From an uncultured Gemmatimonadota bacterium (GTDB lineage Bacteria; SM23-81; DAOVCL01): DNA of 14,684 nt. The stretch is taken from assembly GCA_964626665.1 (NCBI GenBank), contig CAZVGK010000050.1, positions 1 to 14,684 of the forward strand. Reading direction: 5' to 3'. Shown in pieces: positions 3,957 to 14,631 of the stretch (the first letter of the stretch is position 1; each line of letters begins with the position of its first letter). Made by a program: the position numbers and the translations under genes. The notes below the pieces were generated by a model that saw nothing but the letters and a program-made list of their open reading frames with translations, did not search any database and was not told where the DNA came from.

Positions 3957-4092
3957 ACACCCCCCCAACAGACAATCTGAGAGCCATAGGGCTCCAAGCC
4001 CTAAAGTCTTGGGTAAATGTGGATTAAGCAAATGTCGCAGATTAACATGGTGCGGCAACCAAACAACAGCCTCGGATTACACGGAATCCCTG

Positions 4093-4170
4093 GAACACAA
4101 ATGACACGAATAAACGAATCCGCACGAATGGATAAGAAAACACATATTCGCCATAGAATCTCTTGTTGAG
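4093..4170 (+). mobile_element. Isolated, decayed left end of the CACGAAT-repeat element seen at 6651-6827
   Basis: GAACACAAATGACACGAATAAACGAATCCGCACGAATGGATAAGAAAA...TATTC...ATAGAATCTCTTGTTGAG aligns by eye with the minus strand of 6825-6752. Confidence 0.6.
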
Positions 4171-4195
4171 GTGGCAGAACCCCGATTCTGCCACC
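4170..4195. repeat. Perfect 10-bp hairpin (REP-like or terminator-like)
   Basis: GGTGGCAGAA-ccccga-TTCTGCCACC. Confidence 0.6.
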
Positions 4196-4202
4196 ACCTC
4201 CC

Positions 4203-4363
4203 TGAGCTTTCTTCTACCCGGCTTTAGCCGGGGTTGCGTGGGCTTTAGCCCGTTTGGAGTGCTGTGACAGGGTCACAGCATACGTCAACAGGAGTTACCA
4301 CACTCCATATAGGACCTAAAGGCCCTGAACCCGCACTAAAGTGCGGTAGAGGTTGGCTGCTCA
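4203..4363. repeat. Multi-hairpin inverted-repeat element with TTTA/TAAA loops (REPIN-like or structured RNA)
   Basis: Hairpins at 4217-4232, 4240-4251, 4260-4280, 4312-4325 and 4331-4346; long-range pairs TCTACC/GGTAGA, TGGAGTG/CACTCCA and TGAGC/GCTCA. Confidence 0.7.
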
Positions 4364-4516: not shown

Positions 4517-4590
4517 TCGGGGCGACTGGATTTGAACCAGCGGCTTCCACGTCCCGAACGTGGCGCTCTGCCGAGCTGAGCTACGCCCCG
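4517..4590 (-). tRNA. tRNA-Pro(CGG)
   Basis: Cloverleaf CGGGGCG...CGCCCCG-A; anticodon arm CCACG-TT CGG GA-CGTGG; T-loop GGTTCAAATCC; CCA not encoded. Confidence 0.96.
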
Positions 4591-4622
4591 ATCTGAAATT
4601 AACCGACTCCAGCGGGCCTTTT

Positions 4623-4773: not shown

Positions 4774-5238
4774 TCAAAAGATGTTTATCACTCCCAAAGA
4801 GGTTAAAGTAACCACCCCCCCGGCCAGAAGGATCCCCCCTATTATGGCGGGAAGGGCATACCAGAACCTGATGCCAAAGAGAAAGGCGGCCACCGTCCCC
4901 GTCCAAGCGCCGGTAACAGGAAGTGGTATAGCCACAAAAAGGACCAACCCCAGGGCTTCATATCTTTCCACTACCCCACTCCTGCGGCGAGTGCGGGCAA
5001 AGAGCCATTGAAAAAACCGGCGGAATATGGAAAATTTCCTCATCAACCAATTGGACACCGGATCCAGAAAAAGGAGCAGGGGAATAACCGGAAAAAAGTT
5101 TCCTAAACAAGAGAAGAGATATGCCTTCTCCCAACTCAAACCGCCAAAAGTGAGGGCCCAGGGAATGGCTCCCCTCAACTCTGATATGGGCGCCATAGCG
5201 ATAAGTATTGTATAAAGCTCCTTGGAGACCCCAGACAT
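4774..5238 (-). CDS. COG2426 / putative small multidrug export membrane protein
   Basis: PISELRGAIP and LFVAIPLPVTGAWTG motifs. ATG 5238 overlaps the pcm stop (TGATG coupling). Confidence 0.88.
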   Translation of the reverse strand: MSGVSKELYTILIAMAPISELRGAIPWALTFGGLSWEKAYLFSCLGNFFPVIPLLLFLDPVSNWLMRKFSIFRRFFQWLFARTRRRSGVVERYEALGLVLFVAIPLPVTGAWTGTVAAFLFGIRFWYALPAIIGGILLAGGVVTLTSLGVINIF

Positions 5239-5873
5239 CACCCCTGCCAACCTTCCTCCCCCACCAAGGGGACAAAGCTACAACCGCATATATCATTAAC
5301 AAACACCTTTCCCTCACTCTTCTCCAAGACCTGCAAAATCTGATGGTCCCTTTCCCCCACGGGAATCACCATTAAGCCATTATCACTTAGCTGTTCGATG
5401 AGAGAAGGCGGGATGCGCGGAGCAGAAGCAGTTACCAATATGCGATCATAAGGGGAAAACTGGCTCCACCCTTTGCTCCCATCCCCTACTCTGATCACCA
5501 TGTTTTCATAGCCAAGATCTGAAAGTATTCCCTTAGCCCTTTGAACCAAACCAAGTTCCCTCTCCACCGAGAAGATGTGGGAGGAAAACTGGGCCAGTAT
5601 GGCTGTTTGATACCCCGATCCTGTCCCTATTTCCAATATCTTCTCCCCACCATTTAGCTTAAGGCTCTCGGTCATTAGGGCCACCATATAGGGTTGAGAG
5701 ATAGTCTCTCCCTCCCCAATGGGTAGAGGATAATCGCTATAGGCCTGAGGCCAAAGGGCGGGGTCCACAAATCGATGACGGGGAACCCTGCTCATAGCAT
5801 CTAAAACCCTTTGGTCTCTAATGCCGGAAAGCTGGGTGGAAACCATCCTCTGACGAGCAATCAGGAAGTCCAA
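5238..5873 (-). CDS. pcm: Protein-L-isoaspartate O-methyltransferase
   Basis: VPRHRFV, TISQPYMVA, LEIGTGSGYQTA, GDGSKGW and PYDRILVTA motifs; downstream of surE. Confidence 0.97.
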   Translation of the reverse strand: MDFLIARQRMVSTQLSGIRDQRVLDAMSRVPRHRFVDPALWPQAYSDYPLPIGEGETISQPYMVALMTESLKLNGGEKILEIGTGSGYQTAILAQFSSHIFSVERELGLVQRAKGILSDLGYENMVIRVGDGSKGWSQFSPYDRILVTASAPRIPPSLIEQLSDNGLMVIPVGERDHQILQVLEKSEGKVFVNDICGCSFVPLVGEEGWQG

Positions 5874-6625
5874 AGCTTTAGTTTAGAGCCGAAATCCCAG
5901 TCTCCAATCTCCGGAATTGCTGGATAATTAGTCAGGTCCAGATGGAGAGGGGTAATGGATATTTTCCCTTCTTTCACGGCCTTTATGTCCGTATCATCCT
6001 TCCTATCCCAGACGGGGTATTCCTCCCCAATCAAATAGAGGGAATTGCTTCCCTTGGTTTTCTCTATATTAAGCCCTCTCATCCTCTTCCTTCCCAATCT
6101 GGTCACCTGAACCCCTTTGATCTCCTCAGGGGGAAGACCAGGGAAATTTATGTTCAAGATGGTATGGGGGGGGAGACCCTTCTCCAAACAAAGCTCACAG
6201 ATATGACGGGAGAAGGAGGCGGGATAGGCCAGATCCTGGGGCCTCCGCTGAGCTATGGAGAAAGCCAGAGATGAAATTCCAAAAAGCATCCCCTCCAAGG
6301 CGGCGGCCACCGTCCCCGAATAGGAGACATCATCACCCACATTGGCCCCATGGTTAATCCCGGAGACCACTAAGGCCGGCCTCTCATCTAAGAGTTTTTC
6401 TACCCCTAAGGTGATGCAATCGGTGGGGGTTCCCTCTACCACCCAGGTATCTTTTCCCCTCTTCTCCACCTCGATGGGGGATTGAATGGTAAGGGAGTGG
6501 GAAGAGGCGCTCTGCTCTTTCAAGGGGGCTATCACCACTGTTCGGGCCAGCTTCTCCAGCTCCCCACGCAGGGCAGACAGCCCCTCTGCCTCCACCCCAT
6601 CATCGTTCGTTAAAAGGATAAGCAT
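5861..6625 (-). CDS. surE: 5'/3'-nucleotidase SurE
   Basis: ILLTNDDG, GTPTDC, SGINHGANVG.DV.YSGTVAAA and ISITPL motifs. Confidence 0.97.
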   Translation of the reverse strand: MLILLTNDDGVEAEGLSALRGELEKLARTVVIAPLKEQSASSHSLTIQSPIEVEKRGKDTWVVEGTPTDCITLGVEKLLDERPALVVSGINHGANVGDDVSYSGTVAAALEGMLFGISSLAFSIAQRRPQDLAYPASFSRHICELCLEKGLPPHTILNINFPGLPPEEIKGVQVTRLGRKRMRGLNIEKTKGSNSLYLIGEEYPVWDRKDDTDIKAVKEGKISITPLHLDLTNYPAIPEIGDWDFGSKLKLWTS

Positions 6626-6650
6626 TTGCGTATATAAAAGTATGCTCTAA

Positions 6651-6824
6651 AACACGAATTACACCAATGGGCAAATATCACGAATTTTGACGGATTCATC
6701 TGAGTAACCTGGACCTAATTTGTTATAAACCTCAAAAAATGTTTCTATTATCTCCAACAACAGACCTCTATGAATAAATTTCCTTCCCCATTCGTGAAAT
6801 TTGTATATTCGTGCTATTCGTGTT
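6651..6824. mobile_element. 174-bp element bounded by 35-nt inverted repeats built from ~9-nt CACGAAT units
   Basis: 6651-6685 AACACGAATTACACCAATGGGCAAATATCACGAAT versus the reverse complement of 6790-6824, AACACGAATAGCACGAATATACAAATTTCACGAAT. Confidence 0.75.
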
Positions 6825-6827
6825 CAT
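6659..6827 (-). pseudogene. Remnant of a GxxExxY-family (PD-(D/E)XK) protein gene
   Basis: Frame from 6799 reads FHEWGRKFIHRGLLLEIIETFFEVYNKLGPGYSDESVKIRDICPLV*, matching the recalled family N-terminus IIGxxxEV(H/Y)xxLGPGxxExxY. ATG 6827 (MNTNSTN...) is in another frame, and the catalytic core is absent. Confidence 0.65.
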
Positions 6828-6848
6828 AAAAACTTTATCTCTGCTATC

Positions 6849-7505
6849 TTACCAGAAAAGGGCTCTAAAGGTCAAGGCCATAAAGCGAAGGGTATCCAGG
6901 ATTGGGCTAATCAGAGACTCTTTACCTTGATAGAGAGTGCTCACCGGCACCTGGCCTATTCTAAAACCTGCCTTCGCTCCCTTAATAAGAAGTTCAGACT
7001 CAGTTTGGAAATGGGAAGTGGTCAATCTGATATTTTGCAGAATTTCCCTTCTAATAAGCCTATAGCCGGACTGGCTATCCTCCACTTTGGTGTGGGTGAG
7101 GGCAGAAACAACCGCTGAAGTTAGCCTGTTGCTCAACACCCTGGGCCAGGGCATACCTCTCCGATCTTTCATCCGGGAGCCGATGACCAAATCTGCCTGA
7201 TTGGCTTCAGCTAAGAAAAGGGGGATGAATGAGGGGTTATGCTGGCCATCGGCATCCAGAGTAATCACCCCATCATACCCGGATTTGAGGGCATAATTAA
7301 ATCCCGTGCGCAGAGCCTTCCCTTTCCCCAAATTCTTGGGATGTTTGATAACTTTAGCCCCCAAACTCTTGGCGATTTCCGCCGTGCCATCTTGGGAACC
7401 ATCATCTACCACAACTATACCGAAATCTCTCCCCTTTAATTGAGAAATGAGGGGACCGATGGTGGCCTGAGCATTACAGGCCGGTATAAGCACGGCTAAC
7501 CTCAA
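6849..7505 (-). CDS. Glycosyltransferase family 2 (DPM1-like)
   Basis: VVVDDGSQDGT, NLGKGKAL, ITLDADGQH, LVIGSR and DSQSGYR motifs. Confidence 0.93.
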   Translation of the reverse strand: MRLAVLIPACNAQATIGPLISQLKGRDFGIVVVDDGSQDGTAEIAKSLGAKVIKHPKNLGKGKALRTGFNYALKSGYDGVITLDADGQHNPSFIPLFLAEANQADLVIGSRMKDRRGMPWPRVLSNRLTSAVVSALTHTKVEDSQSGYRLIRREILQNIRLTTSHFQTESELLIKGAKAGFRIGQVPVSTLYQGKESLISPILDTLRFMALTFRALFW

Positions 7506-8561: not shown

Positions 8562-9422
8562 CTACTTCAGAAGCACCACCTTACGGGTCTGGGTGAAACC
8601 AGTTGCCTTCATCCGACAGAGATAGATGCCACTGGAGAGGGGTTCCCCATAGCTATCACACCCATCCCAACTAACCTCATACCTGCCTGCCCCCTGCTGC
8701 CCATCTACCAACGTCCGCACCAACTGCCCCTCTATGTTGTAGATCCTCAAGCTGACCGCTGATTGCTGACTGCTGATAGCTGGCAACTGATAGCAGATGA
8801 GGGTGGTAGAGTTGAAGGGATTGGGATAGTTCTGGGAGAGGCTGAAAGCCTCCGGCAAATGAGCCAAGTCCCTGTTTCCCTCTACGCCAACTCTACCGTC
8901 CGAAAATGTAGGAATGTATTTAATCCCATTTGAGACAAAGAAATTGTCATCCTCACCCCAGAAAATTATGTTGGTATCAGCTCCATATCCGAAGCTGGCG
9001 GGGACAAATCTAAGGATATATACTGGATTAGGTGAAAAAGTTACAGCATAACCAGGTTCAGGTTGATGTTTTTCAACGAAGAAGCTACTGTCTGTAATAA
9101 CTATTGAATCAGTCCATCCGAAGCTGGAATCAGGCCATTCTGGTCCCTGAGACCAATCGATTAGAGTAAGTTTTGAAGGGTCCCAGTATATCAAGTTTCC
9201 GAAATGAGTAACCTCTCTGGTGGTATCCTGGAAGATGAAGGTAACTGGTACACTAACTGTATCCTCAATAGGAAATTGGGGCATTTCGAATTCGAAAGTG
9301 ACGGTACTGTCGAGCTTGCCCTTAGTCTCTGCCAAGGAAGATGAAAAAGGTACAAAGATGGCGATGACAAAGACAATCGCCAGGCTCCTCAGCACGAAAT
9401 TAAACATTTTATGGATGAACAT
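8562..9422 (-). CDS. Secreted protein: signal peptide A, cohesin-like domain, FlgD-Ig/T9SS-A-like CTD (type X)
   Basis: RBS AAGGAGGG; hydrophobic signal; DTVSVPVTF...IYWDPSKL..G cohesin-like pattern; QNYPNPFN...SSGIYLCRMKA...KVVLLK. Confidence 0.85.
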   Translation of the reverse strand: MFIHKMFNFVLRSLAIVFVIAIFVPFSSSLAETKGKLDSTVTFEFEMPQFPIEDTVSVPVTFIFQDTTREVTHFGNLIYWDPSKLTLIDWSQGPEWPDSSFGWTDSIVITDSSFFVEKHQPEPGYAVTFSPNPVYILRFVPASFGYGADTNIIFWGEDDNFFVSNGIKYIPTFSDGRVGVEGNRDLAHLPEAFSLSQNYPNPFNSTTLICYQLPAISSQQSAVSLRIYNIEGQLVRTLVDGQQGAGRYEVSWDGCDSYGEPLSSGIYLCRMKATGFTQTRKVVLLK

Positions 9423-9550
9423 TTGATTCCCTCCTTGTGTTTAGTTTCGGACCAAGAAACGAATCTCACTGGCACCCTTCTGTTTCGGGTAGCAGTGATA
9501 TTCCATTGGAAAGGAGAGCAATTCGTGAGTTCCTCCTATCCCTTTCCAGA

Positions 9551-10381
9551 TTACCTGAGCAAGTCCATCTTCTGGGTCTGAGTGAAGTTGCCTGCCTTCA
9601 TCCGGCATAGATAGATGCCACTGGCCATACCACTGGCATCCCAGGTGACTCTGTGATAACCAGCTCCCTGTCTCTGATCCACCAATGTTACCACCTTCTC
9701 CCCTGCGATGTTATAAACCTCCAGGCTCACCTGACAACCAACAGGGAGGCTATAGCTTATCCTGGTCTCTGGATTGAAGGGATTGGGATAGTTCTGGAAT
9801 AGAGAGTATTGAATTGGCCTCTCAAGATGTTCTTGATCCGAAGGTATCCCTACAACAATTGCACCATCAACCAATTTAGGTATGTAATTGACCCCAGGTT
9901 CACAGGAATCATAAAAGTTCAAATCGCCAGCAGAGAAGCTTATCGAGATAGAATGTCCGTAGCCAAAGCAGAGAGGAATTAGCCTGAGAAAATACACTGG
10001 TTCAGAAGTAAATGTCGTACAGTTACCATAGCTCTGCACTTGGACACAGTTAGAGTCAATAAGTTCAACCTCCAAAGAATCCCAAGGTAACCCAGGGCCA
10101 GAAACTACAGTGACATAGCTGACCTCATCAGGATTCCAGGTTATCCGATTTGTAAAGCCCACCAGTGTGCTGTCGGTGAGGAACTTAACAGGAACTTCTA
10201 CTGTGTCTTCAAGTGGGGATCCCTCAACCTGACCAATTTCGAAAGTACTAAAAGAATCAGGATAGGTACTTTTGGTTCCCACGGGCTCTGCCAAGGAGAA
10301 TGAAAAGGGCACAAAGATGGCGATGATAAAGACAATCGCCAGGCTCCTCAGCACGAGATTAAATACTTTATGGGTGAACAT
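9551..10381 (-). CDS. Secreted protein: signal peptide A, cohesin-like domain, T9SS-A-like CTD (type Y)
   Basis: Same RBS and signal peptide type as the 9422 gene; DTVEVPVKF...GFTNRITWNPDEVSYVTVVSG; QNYPNPFNP...WDASGMASGIY. Confidence 0.85.
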   Translation of the reverse strand: MFTHKVFNLVLRSLAIVFIIAIFVPFSFSLAEPVGTKSTYPDSFSTFEIGQVEGSPLEDTVEVPVKFLTDSTLVGFTNRITWNPDEVSYVTVVSGPGLPWDSLEVELIDSNCVQVQSYGNCTTFTSEPVYFLRLIPLCFGYGHSISISFSAGDLNFYDSCEPGVNYIPKLVDGAIVVGIPSDQEHLERPIQYSLFQNYPNPFNPETRISYSLPVGCQVSLEVYNIAGEKVVTLVDQRQGAGYHRVTWDASGMASGIYLCRMKAGNFTQTQKMDLLR

Positions 10382-10517
10382 TTGATTCCCTCCTTGTGGG
10401 TGGTTTTTGGTTAAAGAGTAAAGATGAATTCCATCCCGGAGTTCTAATCTAAGGGGTAGTGGGATTCAATTTGAAATAAGAACAATTGAAGTCGTCCTCT
10501 TTCTTTTCAAACTACGA

Positions 10518-12266
10518 CTATCGCAGAAGCACCATCTTTCTGGTCTGGTTAAAGCTACCCGCGCTTATCCTGTAAAGATAGATTCCACTGGCCATACCAC
10601 TGGCATCCCAGGTGACTCTGTGATAACCAGCTCCCTGCCTCTGATTCACCAATGTTGCCACCCTCTCCCCGGTAATGTTATAAACCTCCAAGCTCACCTG
10701 ACAACCAACAGGGAGGCTATAGCTTATCCTGGTCTTCGGGTTGAAGGGGTTGGGATAGTTAGGAAAGAGAGTAAACTTTTCTGGAGGAGTAACCGAGGCT
10801 CTCTGGATACGCTCATAGTAGCCGGAGGAAATAAGCACAAAGTCTCTCTTCATCCCCTCCTCAGGGGCACCATCGGCGGGGAAGAGAAGATCAATCCTCT
10901 CCCCTGGCTGCAGATTAACCATCCTCTTATCTTGATCCCTCAAAAGGGAGGTTATATCACCAAGCCTGGAGTGAGTAGCAGTGGAGAGATCTATCTTGTT
11001 ACCAGGCAGGGGAGTAAAATCAGCTATGTAACATCCGATCATATCTGCAGTGTAGGAAGAATTATAGGCCAGCTTAATAGTTACCTTCTCACCTGGTGAT
11101 GCATCGCTAAGGTCTATGACAATAGCACCTTCATAGGGATTTGCCCTGGGGAATATCTCTCTAATTGAAGAACTACCCTCTCCTATGATAGTTATCTTTT
11201 CTCCCATGGATGAAGGAAGAGCCTTGTCGACTACCCCTCCCTTTATCATATACTTCGGTAGATCCTCTAAGCTCAGTTGGCAATTGCCAGATCCAGGAAT
11301 ATCAGATGGGAGATAATATTCCAAAAGCAGATACCCAGAACCATTGGAGGTAAAATAGAGACCATCCTCTTCTTTTAACTCCTCCAGGTGATCATTACCT
11401 TTATCATCAGTGCAGCCAATCAAGGGTAATTTCTGCTTATACTCATAGAGACCCCCATCTTCTCCTATGGCCACTTTAGTTCCATACGGATGGTCTGCCT
11501 CTATCAACTGGAAGCTATTCAGGAATGATCTCTCCTTTTCAAATTCCCTGATCTGTAGATGGTAGAAGCCATTTTCTCCCACTAAGGGCTGATTGAGGAG
11601 GTAATAGTCTATAACCTCCTTTTCTCCTCTGGTTTTGTCCTCTGAGGCAGGGAGGATGGTGTTGTCCTCAACAAAATCGTCTCCATCCCAGGTATAGACA
11701 TAAGGACAACCGTGCTCTGGCCGCTGGATGGTCAGGTAGCCCCGTTCAAATTGTAAGTGAACTGGAATAAGGGTACTATCACAGCAATAACCCCAGGGAT
11801 TCATCTCGGAGTCGGAGAGGGGTCTAAGTTCAAACTTTACTCTTGTAGTATGATAAATATGTTTTCTAATCTCCCACTCAGGGGTCCACATAGTCTTCCA
11901 ACTGGAATCAGGGATCAACCAGAAGTAGCAAGGGCAAGGTGGCCGGCAGAAAGCTCCAGTTGCCCGGCCATTAGGGTAGTCTGGCGGTCCCCCAAATATG
12001 GGTGAGTAGGTATAAAGTTCAACTCCCCACCTGCTTAGCGGTGCCTCGGGAACATCGGGGGTAATATCCTTCATCCCCACAGGTATCTTTACAATGTCCC
12101 CGGGCAAGTGCTTGGTAGTGGTTACATCTCCAACTTTAACCAAAATCCGATAGTTTGTATCGCATTCCCCACCAGAGGCAGCCAGGGCCAGGGTGAAAGC
12201 CCCTATGCTGAAGGCAAAGGCCAAAAGGCTGACCACAGTTAATCTTACACCTTTTGAAGAAGCCAT
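10518..12266 (-). CDS. Secreted protein: signal peptide B, Cys-rich region, uncharacterised GCPYVYTWDG domain, CTD type Y
   Basis: RBS AAGGAGG; signal peptide ending ALA-A; 582-aa open frame; NYPNPFN...KMVLLR C-terminus. Confidence 0.85.
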   Translation of the reverse strand: MASSKGVRLTVVSLLAFAFSIGAFTLALAASGGECDTNYRILVKVGDVTTTKHLPGDIVKIPVGMKDITPDVPEAPLSRWGVELYTYSPIFGGPPDYPNGRATGAFCRPPCPCYFWLIPDSSWKTMWTPEWEIRKHIYHTTRVKFELRPLSDSEMNPWGYCCDSTLIPVHLQFERGYLTIQRPEHGCPYVYTWDGDDFVEDNTILPASEDKTRGEKEVIDYYLLNQPLVGENGFYHLQIREFEKERSFLNSFQLIEADHPYGTKVAIGEDGGLYEYKQKLPLIGCTDDKGNDHLEELKEEDGLYFTSNGSGYLLLEYYLPSDIPGSGNCQLSLEDLPKYMIKGGVVDKALPSSMGEKITIIGEGSSSIREIFPRANPYEGAIVIDLSDASPGEKVTIKLAYNSSYTADMIGCYIADFTPLPGNKIDLSTATHSRLGDITSLLRDQDKRMVNLQPGERIDLLFPADGAPEEGMKRDFVLISSGYYERIQRASVTPPEKFTLFPNYPNPFNPKTRISYSLPVGCQVSLEVYNITGERVATLVNQRQGAGYHRVTWDASGMASGIYLYRISAGSFNQTRKMVLLR

Positions 12267-12295
12267 CTTATCCTCCTTAATCTAAAGGTTTCTAT

Positions 12296-14017
12296 TTACT
12301 TCAAAAGCACCATCTTCTGGGTCTTGGTGAAGCCTCCGGCCTTCATCCGGCAAAGATAGATTCCACTGGAGAGGGGCTCCCCACGGCTGTCACACCCATC
12401 CCAAGTAACCTCATACCTACCTGTCCCCTGTTCCCCATCTACCAAAACCCGCACCAACTGCCCCTCTATGTTGTAAATCTTCAAGCTGACCGCTGATTGC
12501 TGATTGCTGATAGCTGGCAACTGGTAACGGATGAGGGTAGTGGAGTTGAAAGGGTTGGGATAATTGGGCAACAGAGCAAATAAACGAGGAAGCTTGGATG
12601 ATTCTTCGCCCTTAACCCCTACCGGAGTTCCACTTGCTATGTTGGATATCCCCGACCAGTTGGGCACCTCATCCGCAGCCTTCAGGGCAAAATAGTAGGT
12701 TGAGTGCGGGGTGAGCCCCTCTACCTTAAACTGCTGCCCTGTCCCCGCCGGCACTGGAGCTGGCTCATCGGCCACCGTATCTGCCCCCTCCCACCAGGCA
12801 GTGGTATCTGTCCCTACTGGATTAGTTGAATAGCGAATGTCATATCTGTGGGCTGTCCCCTGATTGCCATCATTTCCCGGCGCCGTCCAGGTGAGGGAGA
12901 CATAATCACTCCCCTCATATCCAACCGAAAGATCGATTACCTTAAAAGGAGGTAGATCATCCTCTACAAGCTGAGCATAAGAGTATATTCTTCCCTGAAC
13001 AGAATCACAGGATGAAAAGATGAAAAAGCTACTACTACCATTTAGCTCTACATCTGAAGACTTATTGCCGGAATATTGGGGGATAAAGATAAGCGTATAA
13101 AGCTTGTAGGTGTTTAGTAAGGATGATGAGCAGGTGTCCGGAGATACCTCTGGGATAAACCCTAAGTATTGAACCTCAATCGTGTTCCCATAAACGGAAC
13201 TTGTTAATGAGTCGGGGGCGAGTCTGTCGGTTTCTAATCTGACAAACTGGAACTTAACTGGTTCATATGTCATAAAGTGGTGGAAACCTTTATAAAATGG
13301 GTTCTCCGAATGTATGCGAAAGGTTACCCTAAAAGTATCTGTGGCATGGCCATAGATCGGTGCTAGCTCAGGAGTGAGAGGAGGATCAGGGGGAATACAG
13401 GTGTCAGCATCAGATGGACTTAGAAGGACACCAGGATTCAAGTATTTCATAAACATAGAACCAGCTTTGAGAGAATCTGTACATGGTTCGTAAGCACCCC
13501 CAACTCTATCAACGTAATCATTCTTCCATATAATATTTTTGAATCTCACAGGAGCCTTTTTATCACTTCCAAAACATTTGGGTTGGAAATGGAGGTAGTA
13601 GACCGGATCCCCAGAAAAACTGGCTAACTCAAGGGAATCTGAGTAATTACCTCTTATAGCGAGCGCGGTGTCACCCTCTGTTGTATCTTTCCATGACCAA
13701 TTTTCCGGGAAAGCTGGACCTTTACTCCATCCCATATAGGTAAGCTCACCGCTGTCCCAAACAAACGTGGTGTAGAGATTCTGTATACTACTGGTGTCTA
13801 CTCCTCCAGATGCGTCGTAACGGAGGAAAGTTACAGGAACAGAGTCGACTACTCCTGGTATAACTTCCACAGAGTCGATTTTAAATACGCAACTCAGATC
13901 TTCCTCTCCTTTGCTTCCTCCGGGAGAAGCAGCCAAGGCCAGGGTGAAAGATCCCAGGCTGAGAGCAAGGGCCAATAGGCTGGCTACCACTAATTTTACA
14001 ACTTTTGAAGAAACCAT
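12296..14017 (-). CDS. Secreted protein: signal peptide B, two cohesin-like domains, fibronectin type III, CTD type X
   Basis: RBS AAGGAGGT; VDSVPVTF...FVWDSGEL and DTFRVTF...MTYEPVKF segments; FN3 VSLTWTAPG...GLTPHSTYYFALKAADE; NYPNPFN CTD. Confidence 0.85.
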   Translation of the reverse strand: MVSSKVVKLVVASLLALALSLGSFTLALAASPGGSKGEEDLSCVFKIDSVEVIPGVVDSVPVTFLRYDASGGVDTSSIQNLYTTFVWDSGELTYMGWSKGPAFPENWSWKDTTEGDTALAIRGNYSDSLELASFSGDPVYYLHFQPKCFGSDKKAPVRFKNIIWKNDYVDRVGGAYEPCTDSLKAGSMFMKYLNPGVLLSPSDADTCIPPDPPLTPELAPIYGHATDTFRVTFRIHSENPFYKGFHHFMTYEPVKFQFVRLETDRLAPDSLTSSVYGNTIEVQYLGFIPEVSPDTCSSSLLNTYKLYTLIFIPQYSGNKSSDVELNGSSSFFIFSSCDSVQGRIYSYAQLVEDDLPPFKVIDLSVGYEGSDYVSLTWTAPGNDGNQGTAHRYDIRYSTNPVGTDTTAWWEGADTVADEPAPVPAGTGQQFKVEGLTPHSTYYFALKAADEVPNWSGISNIASGTPVGVKGEESSKLPRLFALLPNYPNPFNSTTLIRYQLPAISNQQSAVSLKIYNIEGQLVRVLVDGEQGTGRYEVTWDGCDSRGEPLSSGIYLCRMKAGGFTKTQKMVLLK

Positions 14018-14054
14018 CTCAACCTCCTTGATCTAAAGGTTTCTACTCCTTGAC

Positions 14055-14631
14055 TTACTTCAAAAGCACAATCTTACGGGTCTGGGTGAAACCACCTGCC
14101 TTCATCCGGCAAAGATAGATCCCACTGGAGAGGGGCTCCCCACGGCTGTCACACCCATCCCAAGTAACCTCATACCTACCTGCCCCCTGTTCCCCATCTA
14201 CCAAAACCCGCACCAACTGCCCCTCTATGTTGTAGACCTTCAAGCTGACCGCTGATTGCTGACTGCTGATAGCTGGTAGGTGGTAGCGGATGAGGGTGGT
14301 GGAATTGAAGGGATTGGGATAGTTGGGGAAGAGAGTAAACTTTTCTGGAGGAGTAACTGAGGCTTTCTGGATATGTTCATAGTTGCCGGAGGAAAGAAGC
14401 ACAAAGTTCCTCTTCATCCCCTTTTCAGGAACACCATCGGCGGGGAAGAAAAGATCAATCCTCTCACCTGGCTGCAGATCAACCATTTCCTTATCTTGAT
14501 CCCTCAAAAGGAAGGTTATATCACCAAGCCTGGAGTGAGTGGCAGTGGAAAGATCTATCTTGTTACCAGGCAGAGGAGTAAAATCAGCTATGTAACATCC
14601 GATCATATCTGCAGTGTAGGAAGAATTATAG
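14055..14631 (-). pseudogene. 5'-truncated paralog of the 10518-12266 gene carrying CTD type X
   Basis: 14305-14631 matches 10741-11067 at a constant offset of 3564. Homology stops abruptly at 14631, there is an in-frame TAA at 14678-14676, and no signal peptide or RBS. Confidence 0.75.

Follow-up and report, generated by a model that had tools for sequence, protein, structure and literature searches.

What are the two facing repeat arrays that stand between a glycosyltransferase gene and surE in this bacterium, and how did they come to be there? The window, by which we mean the whole 14,684-nt stretch of Gemmatimonadota DNA analysed here, carries on its minus strand a family-2 glycosyltransferase gene (GT2; 6849-7505, PF00535 at E 1.3e-26), downstream of it surE (5861-6625, PF01975 at E 1.4e-59) and after surE the pcm gene (5238-5873, PF01135 at E 3.2e-62). 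The non-coding bases between GT2 and surE number 223. The original prediction placed in this spacer, at 6651-6827, a mobile unit made of two arms around the remnant of a GxxExxY nuclease gene, and took this particular copy for an internally deleted, MITE-like derivative. Its arms and interior were borne out; its boundaries proved too narrow, since comparison with related genomes gives an inserted unit of 220 nt (6626-6845, minus strand).

The two arms were recovered by a repeat finder at 6651-6694 and 6781-6824, each 44 nt long, 75% complementary and with 86 nt between them. On the plus strand the first holds CACGAAT (6653-6659), CACCAAT (6662-6668), GCAAAT (6671-6676) and again CACGAAT (6679-6685), and the facing arm holds ATTCGTG (6790-6796), ATTTGT (6799-6804) and two further ATTCGTG (6807-6813 and 6816-6822), so that, as had been claimed, each arm consists of four units, at offsets of 0, 9, 18 and 26. 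In the orientation of the element, which is that of the minus strand, the 5' or left arm is 6781-6824, with CACGAAT three times and ACAAAT once, and the same arm recurs in copies elsewhere in this genome (C9, C56) and in its closest relative, G001. The 3' or right arm is 6651-6694 and reads ATTCGTG, ATTTGC, ATTGGTG, ATTCGTG. Exact CACGAAT occurs eight times in the window against 0.66 expected, a count reached by none of 200 shuffles, and five of the eight lie within 6653-6822; a single copy at 9521-9527 is not an arm.

Between the arms (interior 6695-6780) runs what is left of a gene, ~27 codons from its N-terminal part. The minus-strand frame 6659-6823 is open, reads ...LLLEIIETFFEVYNKLGPGYSDESVK... 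and ...FIHRGLLLEIIETFFEVYNKLGPGYSDESVK..., and then enters the right arm, where its stop codon falls (6661-6659). The ATG at 6827-6825 belongs to a different frame, and a frame check found both codons where they had been reported. Outside the arms lie a left segment (6825-6845), which begins with RTAG directly after the host stop and contains the out-of-frame ATG, and a right segment (6626-6650), which ends just before the surE ATG and is absent from the related genome G002. Both are conserved between copies at different loci, and they pair with each other in the predicted RNA fold. Minus-strand RNA from 6626 to 6848 is predicted to form one long stem (-54.2 kcal/mol, z -3.76; none of 200 shuffles as good). 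Rfam gave no match at E <= 1 in 6400-7000, a scan of the element found no terminator pattern, and promoter-like sites numbered two against 0.7 expected.

The history of the site was read from the GT2-surE junction of three genomes of the same genus, of G004 from the same phylum, and of G010. G002, whose flanks are 74% identical, has the GT2 stop, one nucleotide (TAAG) and then the surE ATG, with no counterpart of 6626-6845 (G002:C5). In G001, which is 83% identical, the element is found at the same site (G001:C26). G004 and G010 both have a PF00535 gene directly upstream of surE, with spacers of 10 nt and 78 nt respectively and no CACGAAT array. The empty junction that the original prediction called for is thus present in G002, and the element, also missing from G004 and G010, is not fixed among the relatives. 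Its absence from these three genomes makes the tight GT2-surE junction ancestral and the 220-nt unit derived, and by this comparison the common ancestor of this genome (G000) and G001 acquired the unit by insertion, with the GT2 stop on one side of it and the surE start on the other. The G001:C26 copy (L026 2370-2570) has itself received an insert of ~190 nt with GCCACGAAGGCAC / GTGCCTTTGTGGC-type arms; nested inside the remnant ORF, this insert is what remains of a cassette belonging to a different arm family. Contigs from four of 24 sequencing runs, all of DNA, break at the arms and include pieces of other copies; none of them joins 6625 to 6846, and as contigs drop rare variants this has no bearing on an empty-site variant. 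No clear target-site duplication was seen at the two clean junctions, which leave 2-3 ambiguous bases (AG or AT here, ATA or TA at a second cassette, on contig C4). At the left ends of elements (e.g., window 6841-6848 and G000:C4 at ~52140) RTAG lies directly after or overlaps the host stop codon; at C4 that stop is TAG and the empty site in G001 has TAA. The outer left segment also contains GTAGAA, a word that ends REP-like palindromes of this genome.

The remnant peptide had been assigned to the N-terminus of the GxxExxY proteins. Profile searches found the matching region and scored it below cut-off both with PF13366 (E 0.063, 14.1 bits against 22; residues 23-42 aligned with profile positions 5-24) and with TIGR04256 (E 0.078, 13.4 bits against 35), because only ~20 residues of a 117-position profile are left. 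The assignment holds nonetheless, through BLASTP against the protein of an intact copy with the same arms (G001:C117), where 17 of 40 residues are identical at E 6e-10. Aligned with five intact proteins, the remnant corresponds to about residues 15-41, and everything from the motif tyrosine on is gone: it reads G-Y-S-D-E-S and then arm, with Y43, D79, E89 and K91 of the family deleted. Judged by its sequence, the remnant is a fragment descended from a member of the GxxExxY / PDDEXK_3 family and not a functional member.

Full-length relatives of the deleted copy do exist. Among the eight PF13366 matches in this genome, one full-length gene (C4:52222-52555) lies between CACGAAT arms at 52166-52199 and 52566-52598, the whole cassette being C4:52140-52621. 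This gene is frameshifted by an 8-nt deletion relative to the 90%-identical copy at G001:C117, which is an intact ORF of 133 codons (L078:1532-1933) with its ATG inside the left arm. At the orthologous G001:C156 site the C4 cassette is missing and the flanks, 88-89% identical, join directly. The G001:C117 copy follows a different gene; its orthologous site in this genome (C48) is a decayed mosaic with a relic of the right arm, and G002 has none. With the C4 and G001:C117 copies, and with empty sites at G002 and G001:C156, a mobile unit of the form repeat-nuclease-repeat finds support. Homology to GxxExxY, a nuclease gene between the same arms and an empty GT2-surE junction, the three checks set out in the original prediction, thus all favour it. 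CACGAAT arms accompany the frameshifted C4 gene and the intact G001:C117 gene; the four intact GxxExxY genes of this genome do not have them, each having its own inverted arrays instead (CGCAAAG, CACAAGAT and others). Neither G000 nor G001 yielded an intact master with arms of the window's subtype; two further PF13366 genes of G001 were considered and set aside, one having CACAGAG arms and the other being the ortholog of G000:C12.

The deletion in the window joins the codons ...ES-A-K to the right arm, and the same junction is found at four loci, namely the present one (C50, with G001:C26), C56 (with G001:C47), C9 and G001:C7. The copies beyond the window are G000:C9:52247-52467, G000:C56:3973-4112 together with its further shortened ortholog at G001:C47, and G001:C7:1213-1404, and similarity between the same-junction copies ends within ~25 nt beyond the arms. 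A deletion junction common to separate loci implies that the deleted form was itself copied, and the recurrence at three other loci agrees with the view of this copy as an internally deleted, MITE-like derivative. Other gene-less pairs retain different ends of the ORF (C26:19942 and C6:99032 keep the last codons of the gene), which points to independent deletions. Identity among the copies is 79-90%, a divergence close to that seen in the host flanks, so that they give no sign of recent activity. Orthologous flanks of the C9 locus were not found in G001 or G002, and C56 was rejected as a clean empty site, G002 having an unrelated spacer of ~130-140 nt there.

Arms of this type are numerous in the genome. 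Scoring an arm wherever a stretch of 28 nt held at least two exact heptamers, we counted 66, with heptamer spacings almost only of 9, 17-18 or 26-27 nt. Only four of them fall inside ORFs of at least 120 aa, though such ORFs make up 80% of the genome. A facing partner lies within 650 nt for 17 arms, giving ~13 paired elements, one with a gene, and the remainder are solo. Many solo arms are set among other 9-nt arrays in mosaics that recur, 27 lying after CACnGAwT units and 18 before CACGGAA units. The elements typically start with RTAG right behind the host stop codon, and 18 of 20 cassettes in this genome (seven of the GxxExxY type, 13 four-helix) are co-oriented with both neighbouring ORFs where about half would be expected at random, a count made on crude ORF calls and with some cassettes neighbouring each other. 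Comparison shows cassettes sitting between genes and pointing as their neighbours do, in keeping with units that lack a promoter and rely on read-through from host operons.

The window itself offers a second example of such surroundings. At 4040-4240 there is another CACGAAT array (4105-4129, plus degenerate units) within a mosaic of modules, preceded by CGGATTACACGGAAT-type units and followed by a GAGGTGGCAGAACCCCGATTCTGCCACC-form hairpin and then a TTCTACCCGGC...GCCGGGG REP-like palindrome; this module order recurs at many loci of the genome. The same repeat-rich spacer holds, at 4519-4592 on the minus strand, a stretch that resembles a tRNA gene by sequence. Further along, 8562-14606 comprises five consecutive minus-strand genes, all terminating with a T9SS C-terminal sorting domain (PF18962) and in some cases carrying FlgD-Ig, and elsewhere in the genome CACGAAT cassettes often lie directly after the stop codon of genes ending in PF18962.

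What the intact gene encodes was approached through conservation and structure prediction. Nine residues are invariant in 33 sequences (G37, E40, Y43, D79, E89, K91, Q103, N120 and R130), and the invariance of the catalytic residues indicates a protein under selection. The AlphaFold model (pLDDT 92.5, pTM 0.82) has the predicted fold of a minimal PD-(D/E)XK nuclease. Its best structural match is the Cas4 protein SSO0001 (Foldseek E 6.5e-4; VIA Z 8.2 with an rmsd of 4.2 across 100 residues), and further matches, at Z 5.3-8.2, include a restriction-endonuclease-like protein (3ijm), BpuSI, restriction enzymes, MGME1, Hjc and a splicing endonuclease. At Z of about 8 or less, these fold matches are generic and point to no particular substrate. 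A search of the PDB by sequence profile returned no match at E <= 1. From conserved residues and modelled fold together, the GxxExxY enzyme is probably active. A survey of the PD-(D/E)XK superfamily gives the function of PDDEXK_3 as 'Unknown' and notes multiple transfers (PMC3424549), and literature under the names GxxExxY, PDDEXK_3, PF13366 or TIGR04256, taken from partial texts outside subscription journals, contains no description of repeat arms.

The layout is not peculiar to this genome. PF13366 is present in 75 of 301 sampled genomes, and for a flank test we took the best PF13366 match from each of 29 other genomes among these positives, dropping no locus (L118, which has an internal stop, was omitted from the protein alignment only and is counted here). 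Each gene's preceding 140 nt were aligned with the following 155 nt taken as reverse complement, with 200 shuffles. Flanking inverted repeats were found at 22 of the 29 genes (p <= 0.005, all or all but one of the shuffles being beaten), and at 0 of 32 neighbouring ORFs from the same loci. The arms in the sampled genomes are mostly runs of 8-9-nt units, e.g., CACAGAGA.

It also should be considered that the layout is shared with another protein. By eye, the 16 matches in this genome to PF05635, the four-helix protein of 23S rRNA intervening sequences (IVS), mostly have the same arm-gene-arm arrangement with units of their own. Inverted 7-9-nt units such as GGTAATCGGTGATCGG or GAGCAAGGA occur at PF05635 loci L009-L022 (G000 contigs C2, C4, C5, C7, C11, C13), and one PF05635 locus has GACGAAT units with a 7-nt period, similar to CACGAAT. 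Across the sample PF05635 occurs in 53 of the 75 genomes with PF13366 as against 58 of the 226 without it, an odds ratio of 7.0 in which related genomes are not independent. Given the 58 genomes that have PF05635 but lack PF13366, and four-helix genes in the same layout, the shared design cannot depend on GxxExxY.

From these data 6626-6845 is very probably one decayed member of a family of mobile cassettes. An intact cassette is ~480 bp long, with four CACGAAT units at a 9-nt phase making up its left arm, a 133-codon gene for a GxxExxY (PD-(D/E)XK) nuclease whose ATG lies within that arm, and an inverted right arm. The window copy has lost everything beyond about codon 41 by internal deletion, and the deleted form then spread to other loci by copying. 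Having presumably no promoter of their own, cassettes would be transcribed by read-through from the host operon, and their arms may pair as a long RNA stem, possibly also as a hairpin or cruciform in DNA. The nuclease would recognise the phased units and initiate, by its cut, copying into another site, and deleted copies would then be mobilised in trans by an intact relative. In its present state the window copy would act only as a transcribed hairpin spacer that uncouples translation of surE from GT2, and it probably offers a site for RNase III. We propose the GxxExxY nuclease as the mobiliser tentatively, with somewhat more doubt than belief: the sharing of the layout by four-helix-bundle genes weakens the idea, as do the dozens of arms here with only one, broken, same-arm gene and the lack of a clear target-site duplication. 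For the explanation as a whole, a dead non-autonomous copy of a foldback cassette together with movement driven by the nuclease, we lean in favour on balance.

Several known systems resemble this arrangement in part. In REP/RAYT systems a gene is flanked by inverted short repeats, which are also scattered gene-less in intergenic regions in BIME-like mosaics; the REP/REPIN repeats and the RAYT transposase were reportedly treated by Nunvar in 2010, by Bertels and Rainey in 2011 and by Ton-Hoang in 2012. The present element likewise has one gene between inverted repeats and gene-less repeats scattered and in mosaics, but its gene is PF13366 with a PD-(D/E)XK fold whereas RAYT is an HUH/Y1 tyrosine transposase, and its arms are phased arrays of 7-9-nt units where REPs are single GTAG-tagged palindromes. 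MITEs such as Correia or ERIC are small and gene-less, with inverted ends and many intergenic, co-transcribed copies, and arise by internal deletion of a gene-bearing form. Our element compares well, at 220 non-coding nt with 44-nt arms, same-junction copies at 4 loci and 66 arms genome-wide. Its parent form is also gene-bearing, but encodes a putative nuclease and no recognised transposase, and a clear target-site duplication is lacking. The heptamer tandem repeats of cyanobacteria (STRR) are described as regulatory. Such repeats appear in a preprint on Nostoc recF/recO (10.1101/2022.06.06.494920); they too are short tandem heptamers near start codons across the genome, but are without link to enclosed genes or inverted partners. 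PD-(D/E)XK homing endonucleases (I-Bth0305I, PDB 3r3p, a weak match at rank 46 in the fold search) share the small selfish nuclease gene and the fold superfamily; theirs, however, lie in introns or beside a defined target allele.

The closest published parallel is the ORF-bearing IVS in 23S rRNA of Coxiella and Leptospira. According to passages of PMC4990558, the Coxiella IVS is a selfish element of 428 nt in which a 28-bp stem arises from the terminal inverted repeats, with tandem heptamers (GACAGAT) just ahead of the point at which a four-helix ORF begins, excision by RNase III and decay of the ORF. As far as those passages go, both kinds are units of ~0.4-0.5 kb with terminal inverted repeats that give a long stem, have tandem heptamers before a small, decay-prone ORF and sit within a host transcript (PMC4990558). 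In both a stem with short tandem repeats surrounds the small ORF, the ATG of our intact copy lying in the arm. They differ in that the present element stands between protein genes (GT2, surE) rather than in 23S helix 25 or 45, and its ORF encodes a PD-(D/E)XK nuclease in place of the four-helix S23p protein; dispersal to many loci is shown for the present element, and RNase III processing for the IVS.

The main rival, which we hold unlikely rather than far-fetched, makes the arms themselves the real mobile unit, a REP- or MITE-like foldback that some other enzyme, or the host's replication or repair, sets in motion, with GxxExxY or four-helix genes as passengers or arm-binding accessories. It would account for this genome having 66 arms, most of them solo modules within mosaics of other 9-nt arrays, beside only one same-arm gene, itself frameshifted, and for one layout occupied by two unrelated proteins, with PF05635 present in 58 genomes without PF13366; the GTAG and GTAGAA words in the outer left segment, like those of the genome's REP-type repeats, may also speak for it. 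It sits less well with arm sequences that are specific to each gene subfamily, gene and arms travelling together, or with catalytic residues so invariant that the protein must be under selection, and no other candidate enzyme was identified in this analysis. The strong stem (-54.2 kcal/mol) and the co-orientation of 18 of 20 cassettes with host operons can also be read purely at the RNA level, as in a 23S rRNA IVS: the stem would be a processing or insulation site in operon transcripts, kept for the host's benefit, and presence or absence would reflect recombination and not transposition. Coxiella gives this a precedent, its IVS combining terminal inverted repeats, tandem heptamers before the ORF and RNase III excision (PMC4990558). 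We nevertheless consider it improbable in view of one and the same deleted form at unrelated loci, nested insertions and two clean insertion polymorphisms between congeners, while related genomes do well with a 1-nt junction.

A reading without any mobility, either as a pseudogene passed down vertically from a GxxExxY gene that formerly resided here or as a chance palindrome or operator upstream of surE, could appeal to fixation of the remnant in the closest pair of genomes, G000 and G001. It seems to us scarcely credible, with the element absent from G002, G004 and G010, heptamer clustering far above chance, same-junction copies elsewhere, and neither an Rfam family nor a terminator pattern to suggest otherwise, and the empty site and the dispersal of copies already contradict it. 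Returning to the mobile cassette, it can be carried further, to a proposal we regard as doubtful and offer as speculation: GxxExxY nucleases with arms of phased 7-9-nt units could form a widespread, undescribed class of prokaryotic mobile cassette, in which a stand-alone PD-(D/E)XK nuclease, with no transposase or recombinase, would recognise its own arms and drive copying into junctions between operon genes, with ORF-bearing IVS of 23S rRNA and scattered heptamer arrays as special cases or relics of this class.

For the GxxExxY / PDDEXK_3 family the finding provides a concrete context, that of a gene and inverted phased arms which travel as a unit. The cassettes insert at operon junctions and decay to gene-less hairpins that litter intergenic DNA, and this context accounts for part of the dense repeat mosaics in such genomes and connects them with the long-unexplained intervening sequences of 23S rRNA. 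Annotation is affected as well, in that the arms give rise to N-terminal extensions and small ORFs that are spurious, and translationally coupled genes are split by the inserts. The window copy is a dead relic; its value is that of a well-resolved insertion with an empty site, in a widespread cassette class absent from the literature searched.
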